This document shows, piece after piece, positions 1 through 63,129 of a DNA stretch of 63,129 nucleotides. Each line of letters opens with the position of its first letter. The first letter of the stretch is position 1. Source of the DNA: a virus; the UHGV virus genome UHGV-0087599; one strand, written 5' to 3'. The position numbers and the translations under genes were made by a program. Below the pieces are notes generated by a model, which saw only the letters and a list, made by a program, of their open reading frames with translations, was not told where the DNA came from and did no database searches.

Positions 1-55
1 GCTGCTGGACCGGCTGCTGGACCGGCTGCTGGACCGGCTGCTGGACCGGCTGCTG
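1..55. repeat. 12-nt tandem repeat gctgctggaccg, 4 copies plus 1 partial, continuing at the window end; encodes (QQPV)n on the minus strand
   Basis: Direct reading of 1..55. The same unit occurs at 63106..63129, in phase across the junction. Confidence 0.9.
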
Positions 56-6023: not shown

Positions 6024-6043
6024 CGAGAACAGCGCATCTGCGC

Positions 6044-6286
6044 CTATTTAACGTCGGCAGCCGGGGGACTGTCAACCTGGCTCGCAGCCACAATGGCAAT
6101 GAGCTGAGTAGCAAGCCGTTCCAACTGCACAAGGCTAGGGAGCCTCTTCTGCATAGCCAGAGCCATAGCCCAGGGCATAGCCTCTTTCATAGCGTCTTCC
6201 AGCAGCCGCGCCGCCGTAGGGTATGTTTCCATGAGCTGGGCAGCATTCAGCCGAATCCGCTCGTAGACCTTGTCGTCAGAGGCCAT
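6044..6286 (-). CDS. hypothetical protein, 80 aa
   Basis: ORF between the Gly-rich gene and TerS. Confidence 0.4.
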   Translation of the reverse strand: MASDDKVYERIRLNAAQLMETYPTAARLLEDAMKEAMPWAMALAMQKRLPSLVQLERLATQLIAIVAASQVDSPPAADVK

Positions 6287-6371
6287 ATATTACGCCTTCG
6301 TATCCGAACCGGGCTGGCCCGCAGGCTGCGGGGGCAGCTTCTTCTGCTGGGCCTCAGTCGCATCTTGCGGC

Positions 6372-6602
6372 TCAGATGGAATCCACGTCGGAACGCATGG
6401 TGGTCAGGGATTCCATCACATACTGGTTGCCGTTGTTGCCGCAGCAACCACCACCGCAGCAGTTGCCATTGTTCCAATTGCCACCACGACCCCAGGCAGA
6501 ACCCACGGCACCACCGATGGCGCCACCGATGAGGGCGCCGCCCCAGTTGCCCATGCCGTTGTTGTTACCGCCGATGTCGATAGTAGGCTGGAGACCTTCC
6601 AT
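6372..6602 (-). CDS. glycine-zipper small protein, 76 aa, with a CCGGGCC cysteine cluster; start moved to MEGLQPT
   Basis: GGALIGGAIGGAVGSAWG matches a GxxxG-type glycine-zipper membrane motif; Gly/Asn-rich flanks and NCCGGGCCGNNGN. Confidence 0.45.
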   Translation of the reverse strand: MEGLQPTIDIGGNNNGMGNWGGALIGGAIGGAVGSAWGRGGNWNNGNCCGGGCCGNNGNQYVMESLTTMRSDVDSI

Positions 6603-6685
6603 GAGAAAAACTCCTTGTAAAATGTGGCGATGACCTAGGAACAATGCCCAGGCAGGCTTATGTAATCAGCGGGAAATCCGCTAAT

Positions 6686-7339
6686 TTACGCAGTGAAGCG
6701 AACGAGGGCCGACACATAGGACTGAGTCGTCATACCGGTGACAGCCAATTTCACAGCCTTGCCTTTGAGTGCGCCAAGTGCCTGCGGAGAGTCATTCAGC
6801 GTGATGGGGTTGGCCCCGGATTCCGAGCTCAACAGCACCTGCAAACCCCCGGTACCCGCACCATCAGCTTCGATGTAGCTGAGAGTGACATTGTTCCAGT
6901 CACTCGCAAGGACTGTGTGGATGACTTCGTCAGGAAAGGCAAAATACAGCGGGAGGACGACAAAAGCGGAAGGCATCTGTGCAGCCAGCCACTCCTGGTC
7001 GACCTGAATCACGCCCGCTTTGGTAATGGTGATACCTTCCCCAGCAGTCAGCGACCCACCGAGGGCATCTTCAAGAGCCGTAAGGTCGATTTCCACTGCG
7101 ATGGAATCGCCCTGCAAAGGAGCCTCTGCTCCGTCATTGAACGTGAGGATACCCCCCGTGCTCTTAAGCAGAAACTTATCGGGAACCGTGGGGTGTCCGC
7201 CAGCAGTCGAACCGTCATGGACGACCACGACATGCTTGTCGGTGTCGACGGTGAGCTCACCGGGGAGGCCCTTGTATGTTTTGTGCTGGGCAGTCGTCCC
7301 CCTGAACTGCTGGATAGGACTGGAGTTGTTTCTCGCCAT
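6686..7339 (-). CDS. tail-fibre paralog A, 217 aa, with Mtd_N-like N-terminal domain
   Basis: N-terminus QQFRGTTAQHKTYKGLPGELTVDTDKHVVVVHDGSTAGGHP. It is near-identical to fibre B and resembles the N-terminal domain of Bordetella phage BPP-1 Mtd (from memory). Confidence 0.65.
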   Translation of the reverse strand: MARNNSSPIQQFRGTTAQHKTYKGLPGELTVDTDKHVVVVHDGSTAGGHPTVPDKFLLKSTGGILTFNDGAEAPLQGDSIAVEIDLTALEDALGGSLTAGEGITITKAGVIQVDQEWLAAQMPSAFVVLPLYFAFPDEVIHTVLASDWNNVTLSYIEADGAGTGGLQVLLSSESGANPITLNDSPQALGALKGKAVKLAVTGMTTQSYVSALVRFTA

Positions 7340-20684: not shown

Positions 20685-21359
20685 ATGAGCAACACAACCT
20701 CCACCTCCACCTCCACCACCAATGCCAACGCCAAGCCCAGCGCCGTTCCCACGGCGAAGGTCTTCGCCGGATACGTCGATGACTTGGTCAAGGCTGGCGC
20801 CGAAGTCGAAAAGGCTGCTGCCAAGATTGCGCTTGCCGCAACGCGCCAAGCTGCGCATAGGTCAAGCTTGACCTACCTCAACGCAGCATATGCAGCTTTC
20901 AAGACCTGCCATCTCACATGCTTGCCGCAGCTCATGCGCTACGCGCTGGGAGTGCTTGGCGGATTGACCGCTGACGATAAGGGAAACCCTATGATTTCCC
21001 GGTCAAAGTCCATCCTTCGCATCACAGATGCGCGAGAACGCAAGGCCAACGGCGGTGACGCCTTCGCTTGGGCAGTTGAACCGAAGACCTCCCAAGCCAA
21101 GGAAGAACTTGCACGCGCGCGCCGTGCGCTTGCACATACGGACTTCGCGGACTTCTTGACCGCGCACACGGCTTCGGCCAAGTATGTCAAGGAAGACGGC
21201 TTGACCGCTTCCGAACGTGAGCTGATGGCGCTGCTCAATTGGGCACGCCGTAATAACAAGGCCAGCACGGCCAAGCGTGCTGGAGAGCGCGGATACGCTG
21301 ATTTACAAGATGCGCTCAAGATAGTGAAGAGTATGTTCAAGGAATTCAACGAAGAATAA
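20685..21359 (+). CDS. hypothetical Ala-rich protein, 224 aa, flanked by 33-bp inverted repeats; start moved to MSNTTSTST
   Basis: ORF between the divergent promoter region and the ori-like region. Confidence 0.5.
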   Translation: MSNTTSTSTSTTNANAKPSAVPTAKVFAGYVDDLVKAGAEVEKAAAKIALAATRQAAHRSSLTYLNAAYAAFKTCHLTCLPQLMRYALGVLGGLTADDKGNPMISRSKSILRITDARERKANGGDAFAWAVEPKTSQAKEELARARRALAHTDFADFLTAHTASAKYVKEDGLTASERELMALLNWARRNNKASTAKRAGERGYADLQDALKIVKSMFKEFNEE

Positions 21360-21377
21360 ACAAAACAAAACAAAACA

Positions 21378-21410
21378 TCGTCTCCCCATTCCATGTGATG
21401 TCTCTATATC
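21378..21410. repeat. right arm of the 33-bp inverted repeat
   Basis: tcgtctccccattccatgtgatgtctctatatc, 18 nt after the stop of 20685..21359. Confidence 0.85.
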
Positions 21411-22400
21411 AGGGATTCCCGCCTGAGTGATAGGTAAACGATGGAACCGCACATGGTGGTGCGCTCCAGTAATATGGCGCGTCCAGTGTGAACGTGTGCG
21501 GCAAGTGTCGTGTGGTGTGAAGACACGACACAAAGGGCCGATGTCTGACAAGCATACTGCGTGTGCAAGTCAGACATAGCGGCCCATGTTTGACTAGCAC
21601 ACGGCGTTAAATTATTACGTCGTGTGCTAGTCAGACAATAAGTACCTACGCAGGAATACTTATGGAAGTTGTACGACAGGCCGTGTTCGCCTACGCAGGA
21701 ATACTCATAGAAGTCGAAGCAAAAAACAACTTACGTTAAATTTAAGAATGTTTCTCAAAAAGAAAATATGCTTTTTTGAGTGTTATTTTTCCATGATTTT
21801 TACCTGATTTTCACACTCGCGAAAGTTTCGCACTCGCGAAAGATGAAGTGTAAAACTTTTGCGCGTAGGTGAAACTTTCGCGAGTGTGCTGCAAAAAAAT
21901 GCAACAATGCAAGAAAAAAGTTGCGAGAAAACGATGAACACTCGCGAAAGTTCTACCTACGCGCAAAAGTTTCACAGTTTGACTTACGCGAGAGAGTAAA
22001 CTTTCATTTTGCTGTGAAGATTCCTGCAAAAGCTGCATGTCCCCAAGCAGCAAGGGAGAAGAAAAGAAAAAAGTAAATAATAATAATATATTATATATTA
22101 TATATATATTATATATATTCTTCCTCCTCACAGAAGAAATTTCTTTTTCATTTTTCTGCCGATTTTGGGGTTTTTTCTGGGGATTTTTCGTGGGTTGAGA
22201 ATGTTGCGTGTTTTTCGTTTTTGCGTATGTTTTTTGTGTTGTTTTTCGCCTTCCTCAAATCTTGGCCGTTTTATCCCAGATTGCCGAAAAACTTTCAATC
22301 TTTTGTGAGTAACCTTCCTCACCTTCTCTACCTTCTCACTCGCACAAGGCTACTCACTTTACTCTGCAACCTCAAAAAGTGTCGAGGGAGGACATACAAA
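21411..22400. promoter_or_regulatory. AT-rich non-coding region: candidate replication origin and early promoter region, with palindromes, iterons and a (TA)n tract
   Basis: GC drops to roughly 35-45%. At least 4 copies of ACTCGCGAAAGTT in both orientations (21816..22005) with palindromic core TTTCGCGAAA; 22-nt direct repeat tacgcaggaatactYatRgaagt at 21649..21670 and 21692..21713; inverted repeats gtctgac/gtcagac and tgactagcacacg/cgtgtgctagtca. Pure A/T tract at 22071..22123 with (TATAT)n core at 22090..22118, and a hairpin at ctcaaaaag...cttttttgag. Confidence 0.55.
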
Positions 22401-30137: not shown

Positions 30138-33100
30138 ATGCCTGAAAGCACGCTTGTCGTCATAGACTTCGAGACCTATTGGGACAGCAAAACGTACACG
30201 CTGTCGAAGATGGGTCCCATCGAGTATGTCCGTAACGAAAAATTCACTCCGCAGCTTTGCGCCTTTACCCTGTCCAACGGCTCGTGTTGCGTGGACTGTT
30301 CCGTCGTTGAACATGAGCGTCTGAGAACGACGTTTGAAAATCTGGATACGCATGACGTTGCCTGGTGCGGGCATAACATGCACGGCTTCGACAGTCTCAT
30401 CCTGTCGGAGTTCTTCGACTTCCATCCCCAGAAAATCTACGACACCATCGCCATGATGCGATGGACAGGCTTGTCTCGTGTGTGTCGTGAGAGCCATGCC
30501 GCCCTCACCGAGTTCCTCGGCAACGGCAACAAGGCTGCCGGTACCGTCGTCAGTGACCACAAGCAATGGCCGGACGACTTCACGCCGGAAGAGCGGGCGT
30601 TCTTCATCCAATACTGCAAAGACGACGCCGCGCAATGCTACCAAAACGCACAGGCCATGCTGCCTTACATGACACCTGATGCCCTGCGCTTCATGTCCAT
30701 CACGGCCCGCATGGCCACAGAACCTTCGTTCGTGCTGGATGAAGACCTGCTGCTGGAATACCTGTCCGACCTCGACGCCGCTGCGGACAAGGCGCGGCAA
30801 GAACTCATGGCCATGTTCTCATTCCAAACCAACGCAGACATGCTGGCTGCGCTGCGTTCGGCTGACAAGTTCGCCGATATGCTGCGCTCCCTGGGTGTCG
30901 AACCTCCGCTCAAAGAGAGTGCGGCGAAGACCAAGACCAAGAGGGAAAAGCTCCAGCTCGCTGCCGATGTCGGGAGACCAGGAGCTGCTGAAGAGCTGGA
31001 GAACATGCAGCCTGTGATGACCTATGCCTTCAGCAAGACCGACGTGGACTTCGTCCTCATGCAAGACCATCCCGACCCTCGTGTCGCGCTGCTCGTGCGC
31101 ACCAGGTTGCAGCTCAACAGCAGCATCGACCGCAGCAGGGCTGAGACCTTGCTCAAGTTTGCCCGGATGCATAAGCCCCTGCCTATCATGCTCGGAGCGT
31201 GGCTGGCGCATACGGGACGGTATTCCGCCGGTGCTTCCGCCGACGCCGGGACGAAGACCGACAAGCTCCAGTTCCAGAACCTGAGCAAGCGGGACCCTTC
31301 CAAGCGCAAGCTCCGGCAAGCCATCAAGGTCCCGAAGGGCAAGGTCGTCGTGGCCTGCGACTCTTCCCAGATTGAAGCGCGTGGGCTGGCCTTCGTGGCC
31401 AACGAGGTCGGGCTGCTCACGCAGTTCCGCGAAGGTCGTGACCCGTATTCGGAACTGGCCGAGACCATCTTCGGTGTGCCGTGGCAAGACATCAAGGCCG
31501 GGGCCAAGGCGGGCGACAAGCAGATGAAAATGTACCGTAACACCGGGAAGACTGGTATCCTGTCGTGTCTTGCGGGCACGGTGGAGGTATTAACAAATAC
31601 GGGGTGGAAACGTATTGATACGGTATCTGTTAATGATAAAGTTTGGGATGGCGTATCATGGGTGAAACACGAAGGACTTATCTGCAATGGCTGGAGGAAT
31701 ACCATCAACGTGGCTGGGATAGACATGACTCCAGACCACTTAGTGTTCGACGGTTCCTCTTGGAGAATGGCTGCCGAATTACTGGGCGAACCCCGTTATT
31801 TGAAATCGGCGACCGAGTGGGCGAGCGCGTCATACGAGACTGTGCTGTTGACACATCAGAAGGACATCGCACCATATGGGTTCTCGCCGCGTGTATTAAC
31901 TGCGGCACCGAACGATGGTATAGAGGCTATACCTTGGCTAATGGAAAGGTTAGCAAGTTGTGCACGCACTGCTCGCCACGAGACCTTGAGCATCTTACAA
32001 GTTTTAAGAGGCGTACTAAAGACCCTGAAGTCGGTGCCGTCTTTGGCGAACTCACAGTTCTTGACAACGACCGTCACGAATACGTTGATACCAATGGCAG
32101 AAAACGTACAGAGTACCGTTCATTGGTGCAGTGCTCTTGCGGGGCAGAACCCCATTGGGTATTGCAAAGTAATCTGCGTAGCGGACGGACCACAAGATGT
32201 GATGCTTGTGCAAAGAAGAAAGCAAGAGCAGCACAAGACAAAAAGTATTGGCACTATGCAGATGTGGTGCCGGATACTGCAACACGTCGGCGATTACTTG
32301 CGCGTATTTCCGCATGTATCACACGATGCAGTCCGACACAGAATAAGTGTAAAGCCTGGAAACATTATGGAGGCCGGGGTATCCGAGTCGAATTTCCAGA
32401 CCGTAGAACCTTTCTCGAGTATCTTATCACGCTGCCGGGATATGATGACCCGTCTTTGGAGCTGGATAGGATTGATTGTGACGGGAACTACGCGCCAGGT
32501 AATCTCCGTTTTGTTACGCAGGCGACGAATATACATAACCGAAGACAGGTTGGGGACTTGCAGCAGAAGCTCGACCATATCAGAAAAAATAAAGCCTTGC
32601 TTGCATGGTGTATCGGTGCCGTCCAATACCAATTGCATACAAAAGGTGTACGACCTGAAGAACTGTGGCCCGAACAACCGTTTCCTGATACGTCAGGGGG
32701 GGACGGTACTGATGGTGCATAATTGTGGATACGGTGTAGGCCACACAAAATACAGCAACACGCTGCTGCGGCAGGGAATCCACCTGCATGAAGACCTCGA
32801 CCGTCACCATGAGCTGGCCCGTTATGCCCACGGCATCTACAGGGCAGCACATCCCAACATCGTCGCCTTCTGGAAGACGGCGGAGAATGTTCTGGAGGCC
32901 ATGCTGCGTGGCGAATCCGGTACCTTCGGCGGCCCCAACAATGACATCTACACCTTCGGCATCATGCCGGTGGGCCCCAGGACTGACCTGTGTGTGCCGT
33001 CTGTCCAGTTCCCGAGCGGCTACATCCTGCGCTACCCAGGCCTGCGTGCCGAGCGTAACGACCGGGGAAAGTGGCAGTTCCTCTATGATACTTACAAGGG

Positions 33101-33386
33101 TGCTTCCAAAATTCCTACCCATATTTATGGGGGGGCGTTTACAAATAATCTCGTTCAGGGTCTTTCCTTCGTTGACGTTATTATGTATCAAGGTTGTCGG
33201 ATGGATGAGGCCGGAATCAAGCTGGCCTGCAACATCCACGACGCCTGGGCATCTGTCGTGCCGGAAGAGCAGGGCGAGTATGTGAAGCAGCAGATGCTCC
33301 ACTACATGTCCATAGTCCCGCCTGCTCTCAATGGTTTGCCTGTGGCGTGTGAAGCGGAGATAGGGACGACCTTCGAAATCGTCTAG
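30138..33386 (+). CDS. family-A DNA polymerase with N-terminal 3'-5' exonuclease, interrupted in motif B by a 386-aa intein
   Basis: Exo I VIDFETYWD; motif A ACDSSQIEARG; motif B split as RNTGKTGILS / CGYGVG; motif C NIHDAW. Frame stays open for 1082 aa; extein total 696 aa. Confidence 0.9.
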   Translation: MPESTLVVIDFETYWDSKTYTLSKMGPIEYVRNEKFTPQLCAFTLSNGSCCVDCSVVEHERLRTTFENLDTHDVAWCGHNMHGFDSLILSEFFDFHPQKIYDTIAMMRWTGLSRVCRESHAALTEFLGNGNKAAGTVVSDHKQWPDDFTPEERAFFIQYCKDDAAQCYQNAQAMLPYMTPDALRFMSITARMATEPSFVLDEDLLLEYLSDLDAAADKARQELMAMFSFQTNADMLAALRSADKFADMLRSLGVEPPLKESAAKTKTKREKLQLAADVGRPGAAEELENMQPVMTYAFSKTDVDFVLMQDHPDPRVALLVRTRLQLNSSIDRSRAETLLKFARMHKPLPIMLGAWLAHTGRYSAGASADAGTKTDKLQFQNLSKRDPSKRKLRQAIKVPKGKVVVACDSSQIEARGLAFVANEVGLLTQFREGRDPYSELAETIFGVPWQDIKAGAKAGDKQMKMYRNTGKTGILSCLAGTVEVLTNTGWKRIDTVSVNDKVWDGVSWVKHEGLICNGWRNTINVAGIDMTPDHLVFDGSSWRMAAELLGEPRYLKSATEWASASYETVLLTHQKDIAPYGFSPRVLTAAPNDGIEAIPWLMERLASCARTARHETLSILQVLRGVLKTLKSVPSLANSQFLTTTVTNTLIPMAENVQSTVHWCSALAGQNPIGYCKVICVADGPQDVMLVQRRKQEQHKTKSIGTMQMWCRILQHVGDYLRVFPHVSHDAVRHRISVKPGNIMEAGVSESNFQTVEPFSSILSRCRDMMTRLWSWIGLIVTGTTRQVISVLLRRRRIYITEDRLGTCSRSSTISEKIKPCLHGVSVPSNTNCIQKVYDLKNCGPNNRFLIRQGGTVLMVHNCGYGVGHTKYSNTLLRQGIHLHEDLDRHHELARYAHGIYRAAHPNIVAFWKTAENVLEAMLRGESGTFGGPNNDIYTFGIMPVGPRTDLCVPSVQFPSGYILRYPGLRAERNDRGKWQFLYDTYKGASKIPTHIYGGAFTNNLVQGLSFVDVIMYQGCRMDEAGIKLACNIHDAWASVVPEEQGEYVKQQMLHYMSIVPPALNGLPVACEAEIGTTFEIV
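31566..32723 (+). mobile_element. intein inside polA motif B, with low-GC composition
   Basis: Starts CLAGTVEVLTNTGWKRIDTV (block A) and has TPDHLVF (block B). Ends KVYDLKNCGPNNRFLIRQGGTVLMVHN followed by Cys+1. GC about 45% versus about 60% in flanks. Confidence 0.8.
31643..32722 (+). CDS. alternative-frame (+2) ORF inside the intein encoding an HNH homing-endonuclease domain with zinc knuckles
   Basis: WKHYGGRGIRVEF...LELDRIDCDGNYAPGNLRFVTQATNIHN (HNH_3-like) plus CINCG/CTHCS/CSCG/CDAC. Its TAA stop lies inside the intein's terminal CAT-AAT codons. Whether it is translated on its own (ATG at 31643) or is a frameshifted endonuclease domain is unresolved. Confidence 0.5.
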   Translation: MGWRIMGETRRTYLQWLEEYHQRGWDRHDSRPLSVRRFLLENGCRITGRTPLFEIGDRVGERVIRDCAVDTSEGHRTIWVLAACINCGTERWYRGYTLANGKVSKLCTHCSPRDLEHLTSFKRRTKDPEVGAVFGELTVLDNDRHEYVDTNGRKRTEYRSLVQCSCGAEPHWVLQSNLRSGRTTRCDACAKKKARAAQDKKYWHYADVVPDTATRRRLLARISACITRCSPTQNKCKAWKHYGGRGIRVEFPDRRTFLEYLITLPGYDDPSLELDRIDCDGNYAPGNLRFVTQATNIHNRRQVGDLQQKLDHIRKNKALLAWCIGAVQYQLHTKGVRPEELWPEQPFPDTSGGDGTDGA

Positions 33387-62350: not shown

Positions 62351-63129
62351 TTATCCGGCGGCCCGCAGCTCTTTCAGCCGCGTGCGGTATTCATCCGGGG
62401 AAATCCGCCGCATTTGGTACAGGCTGTTGAGTTCAGCCAAGGTAAGAGTGGGTTTGTCGGCAGAAGAAGTCGCCGGAGTAGCGGCCCCACCCGCCACCTG
62501 CACAGGCGGCACAGTAGTGACCTTGCCATTGTCAGGACGGTTCTGTTTGAACTTGTCCACGATGTCGATGACATAGCGCGTGTTACCGGCGTAGAACTCC
62601 TGCGTAGCCGCCTGGTCACGACTCCGGCTGCTCAGACCGTCAGGTTCCTGGAGATATTGCAGGAAAGCCGGGTCATTGAACAGGATGTAGAAATCAGGAT
62701 GCACTTGCAGGATTTCACCAGCGTAACGCGCTATCTGTGCCTGCTGCGTAGCGTTGAGCGCTTCGACACGATTGCGTTCGATGTTCTCACGCTGGGCCTT
62801 AACTTCAGCCGCAACGCTATCAATAGGCTGCTTCAGCATACGCGCTGTCATAACAGCGATACGCCGGGCGTCGGCAGGGTCCACCGTCTCCAAAGCGTTC
62901 AGCTCATCGGCGTTGTCGAGACTCGCCAACATGGCCTGCTGCTGGTTGGCAACTTCGAACTCAGCATTGTGTTTCTGCATCTCGGCCAACTGGTTGGTGA
63001 GAATATCACGTTCATGCGTAAGCTGCTGTATCTGCTGCGTCTGCTGCGTCATAAGCGCAGCCTGGCGCTGCTGCTGGGCCATGAGCATATAAGGGTCGAG
63101 AGGCGGCTGCTGGACCGGCTGCTGGACCG
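62351..63129 (-). CDS. C-terminal part of a junction-spanning Q-rich putative scaffolding-like protein; full gene runs 187..1 then 63129..62351, 322 aa
   Basis: Minus-strand frame from ATG at 187 (MSNNPAAPGGNTS...SESQQPVQQPVQQPVQQ) continues in phase through the junction codon (1, 63129, 63128 = ccg) into PVQQPVQQPPLDPYMLMAQQQRQ... of ORF 62351..63088. Total 966 nt. Gln-rich with probable coiled coils; lies immediately upstream of the putative capsid gene. Confidence 0.6.
   Translation of the reverse strand, partial: VQQPVQQPPLDPYMLMAQQQRQAALMTQQTQQIQQLTHERDILTNQLAEMQKHNAEFEVANQQQAMLASLDNADELNALETVDPADARRIAVMTARMLKQPIDSVAAEVKAQRENIERNRVEALNATQQAQIARYAGEILQVHPDFYILFNDPAFLQYLQEPDGLSSRSRDQAATQEFYAGNTRYVIDIVDKFKQNRPDNGKVTTVPPVQVAGGAATPATSSADKPTLTLAELNSLYQMRRISPDEYRTRLKELRAAG
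63106..63129. repeat. 12-nt tandem repeat gctgctggaccg x2, continuing at 1..55 (circular closure)
   Basis: Identical unit and phase to the window start. Confidence 0.9.

Follow-up and report, generated by a model that had tools for sequence, protein, structure and literature searches.

Introduction

Out-of-frame endonuclease genes within inteins were first described in 2025-26 and were called rare (bioRxiv 10.64898/2026.09.14.751524 and 10.1101/2025.01.02.630785). Here, we analyzed a 63,129-nucleotide (nt) stretch of phage DNA, UHGV virus genome UHGV-0087599 (hereafter the window; all coordinates refer to its full length), in which the gene of a family-A DNA polymerase (PolA) is interrupted by an insert at 31566..32723. 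We consider it highly probable that this insert is a mini-intein in motif B of the polymerase that carries a separately translated homing-endonuclease gene in the +2 reading frame. A preliminary description, made from the letters of the window alone, had listed an intein with a nested, separately encoded homing-endonuclease gene as the first of three explanations for two overlapping open frames, and this option is now supported by relatives of the locus, by frame-specific selection and by start signals.

The cyanobacterial dnaX intein carries a LAGLIDADG gene in the +2 frame (bioRxiv 10.64898/2026.09.14.751524). Like it, the window's insert consists of host-frame splicing domains around a disordered, low-confidence middle, its +2 open reading frame (ORF) for the endonuclease is under purifying selection, and its alleles include full, mini and empty forms side by side; that report also points to a Shine-Dalgarno-like motif, and the best PDB sequence match of the window's N-terminal splicing (Hint) subdomain is the DnaX mini-intein 7cfv. 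However, the dnaX system joins a LAGLIDADG enzyme to a cellular clamp-loader gene, whereas here an HNH-like protein is joined to a phage family-A polymerase, and the dnaX report describes no second group in the other alternative frame. In actinobacteriophages, 63 non-canonical inteins were reported, with an endonuclease VII-like gene in "frame 3" (+2) or with antisense endonuclease genes; these architectures were termed rare, and a free-standing endonuclease gene invading an intein was proposed as their origin (Gosselin, Arsenault & Gogarten, bioRxiv 10.1101/2025.01.02.630785). The window shares with them a +2 endonuclease, putatively of the broad His-Me finger class, and a structureless in-frame middle. 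In contrast, their exteins are Pol III alpha, minor capsid, terminase and thymidylate synthase proteins and not PolA motif B, that report mentions no start codon or ribosome-binding site, and the layout that is rare there is the only state found among 132 nested loci here.

Three further systems resemble parts of the locus. An out-of-frame HNH insertion without an intein, thought to stay as a loop in a methylase, was described in ShiLan in 2025 (PMC11855218). It has in common with the window a hidden third-frame HNH gene, the lack of an added host-frame stop, flanking zinc fingers and a homing-like distribution, but it has no detectable splicing blocks, whereas Hint blocks, the Hint fold and mini-intein alleles are all present here. 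In fractured genes, a free-standing GIY-YIG or Vsr-like endonuclease gene intervenes between the halves of a split intein (Dassa et al. 2009, PMC2677866), and the 3′ end of this gene reaches 6-69 bp into the downstream half of the intein. The evolutionary model of a mini-intein invaded by a free-standing endonuclease gene applies to both cases. Fractured genes, however, comprise two host ORFs and rely on trans-splicing, while the host frame is continuous here and in 132 relatives; splicing would therefore occur in cis and the overlap is total. The intron-encoded I-PfoP3I is an HNH-type mobile gene that likewise interrupts a phage family-A polymerase gene (PMC3428280), but it sits in a group I intron removed by RNA splicing, whereas the window has no intron signature and its host frame would be translated through.

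With canonical bifunctional inteins, the locus has in common that a replication enzyme is interrupted in one of its conserved catalytic motifs, that the splicing blocks are the same and that a homing cycle is presumed. In those elements the HNH or LAGLIDADG endonuclease is a domain of the same polypeptide, while none of the 132 nested relatives has its endonuclease in frame 0. In the literature searched, we came across no account of phage family-A polymerase inteins with an endonuclease out of frame. For other genes, the architecture has already been published, and the set of PolA motif B loci is a very large addition to this recently recognized kind. What is added here is the scale of the family, the lack of in-frame forms, the use of both alternative frames, the signals within Hint-coding sequence and the presence of the stages of a homing cycle in one population.

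The insert divides motif B of a family-A DNA polymerase

The polymerase is encoded by an ORF at 30138..33386 on the plus strand, to which all features named below belong (1082 amino acids [aa]; Pfam DNA_pol_A, E = 7e-14; PHROG DNA polymerase, E = 6e-42). The insert at 31566..32723 comprises 1158 nt, or 386 codons with no stop in the polymerase frame, and its junctions read GKTGILS/CLAGTVEV... and ...LMVHN/CGYGVG. The N-extein (30138..31565), which yields the Pfam and PHROG polymerase matches, ends in the first half of motif B, YRNTGKTGILS, and the C-extein (32724..33386) begins with the second half, CGYGVG. Once the flanks are joined, R-x3-K-x7-Y-G is regenerated in the polymerase. We take this to be the spacing of motif B, the O-helix of Pol I, and the insert therefore interrupts the deoxynucleoside triphosphate-binding helix.

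An insert with these bounds, a Cys start, TPDH and a His-Asn/Cys end that splits family-A motif B had been recognized in the preliminary description, and both the sequence and an intein-free allele that lacks the 1158 nt confirmed it. The insert has a G+C content of 49.6%, compared with 58.0% for the exteins and 56.6% for the window as a whole, in place of the previous estimates of about 45% against about 60%. Searching the polymerase gene against cultured phages by megablast gave no match; among cultured phages, its protein is most similar to those of Pseudomonas phages KPP25 and phiR18 (about 29% identity).

Splicing blocks lie at both ends of the insert

The first residue of the insert is Cys (TGT, 31566..31568), as it is in nearly all of 125 unique relatives. 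The N-terminal Hint subdomain (31566..31844) contains this Cys1, a WDGxSW segment and block B, and extends through ...ASYETV. Block B, Thr-Pro-Asp-His (TxxH), is encoded at 31728..31739, and all four of its residues are invariant in the family alignment. At the other end, the C-terminal splicing subdomain with blocks F and G (...QKVYDLKNCGPNNRFLIRQGGTVLMVHN; 32619..32723) is matched by the family hidden Markov model (HMM) with E = 6e-17 and is predicted by AlphaFold2 to form beta strands. The insert terminates in ...VYDLKNCGPNNRFLIRQGGTVLMVHN, followed by Cys +1, so that the junction at 32718..32726 reads directly as CAT AAT/TGT; a His-Asn end followed by Cys or Ser is kept across the relatives.

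Conservation in the polymerase frame is confined to the first ~93 and the last ~30-35 residues of the insert. A profile built from the N-terminal 100 residues of six relatives matched the Spirulina DnaX mini-intein 7cfv and the Nanoarchaeum polymerase intein 5oxw, each with E = 3e-4, and RecA mini-inteins with E of ~0.1. The AlphaFold2 model of the polymerase-frame insert is beta-rich at residues 1-90 (pLDDT, the predicted score of the local distance difference test, 81-92), reaches pLDDT 62-87 in the last ~30 residues and is unstructured in the ~260-residue middle (pLDDT 20-50). When this model was compared with the PDB by Foldseek, the top 17 matches were all inteins or BIL domains (E of 3e-3 to 7e-2, probability 0.90-1.00), including gp41-1, NrdHF, DnaB, RecA and BIL; with ~76-87 aligned columns, this support for the Hint fold is moderate. 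The middle, a polymerase-frame spacer at 31845..32618, is translated, not conserved and without predicted structure; it arises from reading the endonuclease gene out of frame and is deleted in mini-intein alleles.

In PHROG, the polymerase-frame product is matched only through its first ~65 residues, by an "endonuclease" family. PHROG family 374, a 617-position profile, was considered as an ancestral in-frame fusion of intein and HNH domain and was dropped, as the polymerase-frame product did not match it.

The insert lies in the host frame, and orthologous 696-aa alleles lack precisely these 1158 nt. It is probably a class-1 intein removed by protein splicing, for which there is indirect support: the O-helix is interrupted in what is the replicative polymerase of intact phage genomes of ~62-64 kb recovered from many samples.

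The two ends and the middle of the insert are selected in different frames

The +2 ORF extends from TTG 31643 or ATG 31658 to a TAA at 32720..32722 that lies within the CAT-AAT His-Asn codons, where the preliminary description had also seen it. Over the same DNA, the polymerase frame contains no stop, against 6-6.8 expected when synonymous codons were shuffled with the +2 protein held fixed. The probability of the double open frame was below 5e-5 by the within-ORF codon shuffle and 9e-4 under genome codon usage, and the third frame has 33 stops. The earlier claim that both frames are open beyond chance is borne out by these numbers.

We then compared the window with loci L001 and L003, its closest diverged relatives. 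Substitutions fall at polymerase-frame third positions in the exteins and from 31566 to ~31790, shift between ~31800 and ~32600 to polymerase position 2, which is the third position of the +2 frame, and return to polymerase third positions after ~32610. In the center (31796..32600), the +2 frame of the window and L001 shares 84% aa identity, with 83 synonymous and 42 non-synonymous differences; read in the polymerase frame, the same DNA shares 59% aa identity, with 11 synonymous and 109 non-synonymous differences. The insert is therefore coding in the polymerase frame at its ends and in the +2 frame in its middle, where the polymerase frame is constrained only to remain open. The +2 ORF overlaps the Hint ends by its first ~47 and its last ~28 codons, and these evolve in the polymerase phase.

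The same layout recurs in a large family of loci

To the initial set we added 160 further loci from viral contigs and species genomes, including 80 of 547 relatives in IMG/VR, and located their Hint ends with family HMMs, which brought the total to 168. In 132 of these, Hint blocks on the N- and C-terminal sides enclose an endonuclease ORF, and the host frame is open throughout; 33 lack flanking Hint blocks and are apparently free-standing, and 3 are cut by contig ends. The nested ORF is in frame +2 in 75 loci, in frame +1 in 57 and in frame 0 in none. Selection against stops is visible: across the endonuclease core of 123 unique nested loci, ~579 host-frame stops are expected and none occurs, whereas the third frame has 11 on average and the free-standing relatives have 6-10 stops in each alternative frame.

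Nearly all nested loci are in PolA motif B, and PolA motifs A and C flank them in most hosts. The contigs encoding homologues of the +2 protein are syntenic fragments of phage genomes; their polymerase frame, too, stays open across the whole insert. More distant homologues (41-52% identity) occupy the same motif B site with the same layout in quite different family-A polymerases. The nested loci, which share 30-99% identity, come from viral, metagenomic, isolate-genome and cultured-phage records; the +1 sister group (L104-L158 and others) includes Gardnerella, Allobaculum, Megasphaera and Acetobacterium genomes. One HNH relative in a 1476-aa ORF (L145) was considered as an in-frame intein and rejected, as it constitutes the N-terminal domain of a large non-intein protein.

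This recurrence bears on two alternatives. The frame difference could be an artifact of two sequencing or assembly indels, the third of the explanations offered previously, which has nothing but its a priori possibility in its favor. The two-frame layout is found in 132 independently assembled loci without a polymerase-frame stop, and the phase of substitutions is consistent with two real frames; we give this explanation almost no credence. The insert could also be a group I intron with an HNH gene, the open polymerase frame being a coincidence, and HNH genes are indeed known in group I introns of phage DNA polymerase genes, such as that of I-PfoP3I (PMC3428280). However, a search of 31300..33000 against Rfam matched no RNA family at E<=1, group I introns included, the polymerase frame is free of stops in all 123 unique loci, the Hint blocks are conserved in that frame, and mini-intein alleles in frame exist. 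An intron is accordingly an extremely improbable explanation, and we retain the intein with a nested gene.

The hidden gene is also present in cultured phages, in 225 records, of which 146 are from Salmonella phages (Jerseyvirus among them) and others from phages of Staphylococcus, Enterococcus, Escherichia and other hosts. Among the 40 rows listed, the match lies under a DNA polymerase coding sequence (CDS) alone, barring records or rows without any annotation. In Salmonella phage f18SE (L168:951-4049, corresponding to NC_028698.1 4592..7690), for example, the 1032-aa "DNA polymerase" holds an intein and an unannotated 247-aa +2 ORF (L168:2384-3127; NC_028698 positions ~6025-6768). The InBase intein registry lists DNA polymerase inteins of Salmonella phages SETP3, SETP5 and SETP12, and the intein itself may therefore be on record.

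On L001, L002 and L003, metagenome gene callers called the endonuclease and then cut the polymerase, of which a C-terminal piece of 223 aa was left. The splitting of database proteins from loci of this type is therefore an artifact.

The +2 frame encodes a putative HNH-like endonuclease

The +2 gene (31658..32722; alternative starts TTG 31643 and TTG 31760) encodes 354 aa followed by the TAA. Its product is matched by PHROG families annotated as HNH endonuclease, with E = 4e-26, 4e-14 and 9e-11, and weakly by an "endonuclease VII" family (E = 2e-4). It is the only recognizable nuclease in the insert, in agreement with the preliminary assignment of the sole endonuclease to this frame. AlphaFold2 modeled the protein with a pLDDT of 86.4 as a pair of small beta modules that each bear a four-Cys ribbon, together with a helical segment and a beta-beta-alpha unit. 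The four CxxC knuckles counted earlier are in fact three CxxC and one CxC, which make up the two ribbons. The first (CINC...CTHC; 31892..31972) belongs to a predicted beta-barrel module and occurs in the long form only, and the second (CSC...CDAC; 32132..32209) is family-wide, with C159, C161, C181 and C184 nearly invariant. The beta-beta-alpha unit is predicted at LELDRID...GNLRFVTQATNIHN, in the putative nuclease core LELDRIDCDGNYAPGNLRFVTQATNIHNRR at 32456..32545. In the family, N282, the Asn of the second strand, is invariant, and N294, at the Asn/His position in the helix, is nearly so.

We found 76 homologues of the +2 protein with a free-standing size of 206-368 aa, and their full-length identities include 99%, 83% and 62%, the last in L003. 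The wider endonuclease family comprises 26,812 representative proteins at E<=1e-3, of which 1,033 are retained at E<=1e-10.

Start and stop signals of the nested gene

The nested gene likely starts at ATG 31658, which is kept in most relatives, and not at TTG 31643; the ORF proposed at 31643..32722 thus exists, but the start assigned to it was not upheld. A Ser-Trp codon pair (tcATGg) gives rise to ATG 31658. Of 70 unique sequences in the +2 group, 64 have their first ATG at intein nt +77, +92 or +98, and these ATGs are built from the base that precedes a conserved Trp codon (xxA-TGG). An A occupies this base in 57-69% of cases, compared with 14% of third positions in the exteins, which reveals selection for the start codon. 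A second candidate start, TTG 31760, is also made from a Ser-Trp pair, lies at the switch of selection to the +2 frame and falls in an alignment column that is M, L or V family-wide. In the +1 group, an ATG at +145 is present in 40 of 49 sequences, built from Tyr TAT plus GAx and often placed right after an in-frame stop. There, an AGGAGGT-like Shine-Dalgarno sequence lies 8-9 nt upstream of the ATG in 34 of 37 sequences, against 18% in control windows, and is itself inside Hint-coding sequence.

The ends of the endonuclease ORF differ between clades. Most relatives have their own stop 22-49 nt before the end of the intein, the window's clade uses the built-in TAA of CAT-AAT, and many members of the +1 group run 22-58 nt into the C-extein. 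The terminal His-Asn, when spelled CAT-AAY (32718..32723 in the window), supplies the TAA stop of the +2 frame, and several relatives use it; the ShiLan insertion similarly ends in TAAC, which provides the stop of its third-frame HNH gene (PMC11855218).

These patterns of starts, stops and signals fit independent initiation and termination of the endonuclease and not frameshifting. The latter would make the insert an ordinary bifunctional intein whose endonuclease domain is reached by two programmed frameshifts, from 0 to +2 and back, for instance at the A6 run at 32584..32589, and it draws on both frames being open and on the location of this run near the point of return. The A6 run is present in the window, as previously pointed out, but it is absent from L001 and L003. 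Moreover, many relatives have an in-frame stop right before the conserved ATG (open from +89 with ATG +92, or open from +142 with ATG +145), the +1 group has a Shine-Dalgarno sequence plus ATG embedded, the endonuclease ORF stops short of the intein end in most relatives and runs past it in others, and mini-intein alleles show that the ends suffice. With the run not conserved, a start codon of its own conserved and two groups using different frames, compensating frameshifts are very improbable, and separate translation of the nested gene remains our preferred reading.

A scan for promoters and terminators was at chance level, with 2 sites found against 1.9 expected. One sigma-70-like site at 31615..31642 (TTGATA, 16 nt, TAAAGT, extended TG), 16 nt upstream of ATG 31658, was given no weight.

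Stages of a presumed homing cycle coexist in one phage population

A search with the whole polymerase recovered several allele states from the same phage population. Intein-containing alleles of 1082 aa share 96% whole-protein identity with the window, and empty-site alleles of 696 aa (1082 - 386; more than 50 clusters) have exteins 99-100% identical to it. Mini-intein alleles of 841 and 847 aa, in which the endonuclease region is deleted, have exteins 93-97% identical to those of the window, and a 1007-aa allele (L171; exteins 93% identical) has an internal deletion of 225 nt in the endonuclease gene (32241..32465), by which YGGRGI through LDRID are lost while the polymerase frame is still open. 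Finally, P0088 and P0090 (1073 aa) and P0079 (1081 aa) carry a different intein lineage at the same site in exteins nearly identical to those of the window; their intein is, by eye in the alignment, roughly half identical to the window's. This indicates that one phage population has apparently been invaded repeatedly and independently by different intein/endonuclease lineages.

At the DNA level, exactly 31566..32723 is missing from the empty allele L169. The empty-site sequence reads ...AAAACAGGAATTTTGTCC/TGTGGCTATGGC..., and the L169 DNA reads ...GGGAAAACAGGAATTTTGTCC/TGTGGCTATGGCGTAGGACAC..., the slash marking the point of insertion. The N-extein of the window is 98.1% identical in DNA to that of L169, and 8 of the 27 differences fall within the last 30 nt before the insertion site, a clustering that looks like co-conversion during homing.

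When L001:246-1400 was compared with L003:460-1614, the Hint ends were 100% identical and the exteins nearly so, while the endonuclease centers were 65% identical. Conversely, the window and L001 are 84% identical in the center and only 65-70% in the exteins. The element is therefore mosaic, which suggests recombination inside inteins.

Observations that weigh against an active element

Several results weigh against the reading of the insert as an intein with an active, separately translated nuclease, and we consider them together. First, no intein or Hint family matched the insert in Pfam (E<=1) or NCBIfam (E<=10); the insert family is too divergent for these curated intein models. The splicing blocks were thus missed by the curated profiles, while the family profile matched solved mini-inteins and the fold matched only inteins. 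Second, Pfam and NCBIfam scans of the insert in both frames gave no HNH domain. A sequence-profile search of the PDB with the endonuclease family returned only weak zinc-ribbon-like matches and no HNH, Foldseek of the endonuclease model against the PDB gave no significant match, and the similarity of the model to beta-beta-alpha-Me nucleases is weak. Third, the canonical catalytic His of HNH enzymes is replaced by an invariant Arg (Asp270-Arg271, encoded at 32465..32470) in 34 of 34 aligned family members. We therefore label the protein HNH-like (DRxD...N...N variant; family motif DRID...N...N). Fourth, the sequence upstream of the window's start offers only a weak GGGATGG, formed by Trp-Asp-Gly codons, and a core Shine-Dalgarno sequence is found in 29% of the +2 group against 13% of controls. 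Fifth, the first ~47 endonuclease codons evolve in the polymerase phase, and the true start could therefore be downstream of 31658. Finally, compared with the nearest relative L088 (97% endonuclease protein identity), the center of the +2 frame has 7 synonymous and 9 non-synonymous differences, so that recent constraint on the window's endonuclease may be weak.

The last observation, together with the weak ribosome-binding signal of the +2 group, the missing catalytic His and the decayed forms in the population (the 225-nt deletion allele and the mini-inteins), would be expected if the intein splices but the +2 gene of this copy is an inert relic that is open only through incomplete decay. However, the ORF is intact over 354 codons, the deep comparison reveals purifying selection (83 synonymous versus 42 non-synonymous differences), and the start codon is enriched across the +2 group. 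Furthermore, empty alleles with near-identical exteins and the co-conversion-like flank indicate recent movement, and, since the Arg replacement is invariant in a family with thousands of members, it does not represent damage to this copy. We therefore regard a relic as unlikely.

The Asp-Arg pair in place of the Asp/His-His of HNH enzymes, the lack of a Pfam HNH match and the weak structural similarity to beta-beta-alpha-Me nucleases could also mean that the +2 protein is not itself a nuclease, but binds DNA sequence-specifically and recruits, or relies on, a separate nuclease, or else has some other role in the phage. Against this stand the matches to several PHROG HNH endonuclease and endonuclease VII families, the conservation of the motif residues N282 and N294, the predicted beta-beta-alpha topology and a presence/absence pattern of the kind produced by homing. 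This alternative is quite improbable in our view, and nuclease activity of the +2 protein is what its sequence suggests.

A model for the nested element and its implications

From these comparisons of sequences, we infer protein splicing, internal initiation, DNA cleavage and homing as parts of the following course of events. Ribosomes translating the polymerase would pass through all 386 codons of the insert. The first ~93 and last ~30-35 residues would form the Hint splicing domain, and the ~260 residues between them would be a meaningless loop that needs only a stop-free frame. The Hint domain would then excise the insert and join ...GKTGILS to CGYGVG..., which would restore motif B. Separate ribosomes would initiate inside the Hint-coding sequence, at ATG 31658 or possibly at TTG 31760, the product being a free-standing protein of 354 aa in which two zinc ribbons accompany an HNH-like core. 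This protein would cut intein-free polymerase alleles at the site encoding motif B, and repair from an occupied allele would copy the intein and the endonuclease gene together.

We lean slightly toward the view that out-of-frame nesting is a stable, selected and dominant state of a whole intein lineage and not a rare transitional accident. If so, separate, low-level translation of the endonuclease would be favored over domain fusion, and hundreds of sequenced phages, including those of the 146 Salmonella phage records, would carry an unannotated overlapping gene within their polymerase gene. The family suggests that out-of-frame intein endonucleases are common in phage family-A polymerases, and the layout supports the "splicing domain first, endonuclease later" model of intein origin. 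The locus is also a natural case of overlapping genes, in which ~1 kb is read in two frames, segments are selected in different frames and the translation signals of the endonuclease gene are encoded within conserved intein residues.

The Salmonella Jerseyvirus phages offer culturable models for translation of the endonuclease and for homing. A single phage population that holds the empty site, the full element, a damaged endonuclease, the mini-intein and a competing intein lineage is useful for theory on the persistence of selfish elements. For annotation, it matters that the endonuclease is either concealed by gene callers beneath a long "DNA polymerase" CDS or called at the cost of splitting the polymerase in two.

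Two features of the window lie outside the polymerase gene. The insert had been described as the lowest-G+C DNA of the genome, but a stretch at ~21.15-22.4 kb is lower (~21150..22400; 41% against 56.6% overall). No long ORF is found at ~21.4-22.2 kb, and the low-G+C stretch may serve in regulation or as an origin, or it may be a further foreign insert. The ends of the window, 1..55 and 63104..63129, consist of the same 12-nt tandem repeat GCTGCTGGACCG in 4.6 and 2.2 copies, respectively. Probably, the contig is circular or has terminally redundant ends, and its break fell within the repeat.

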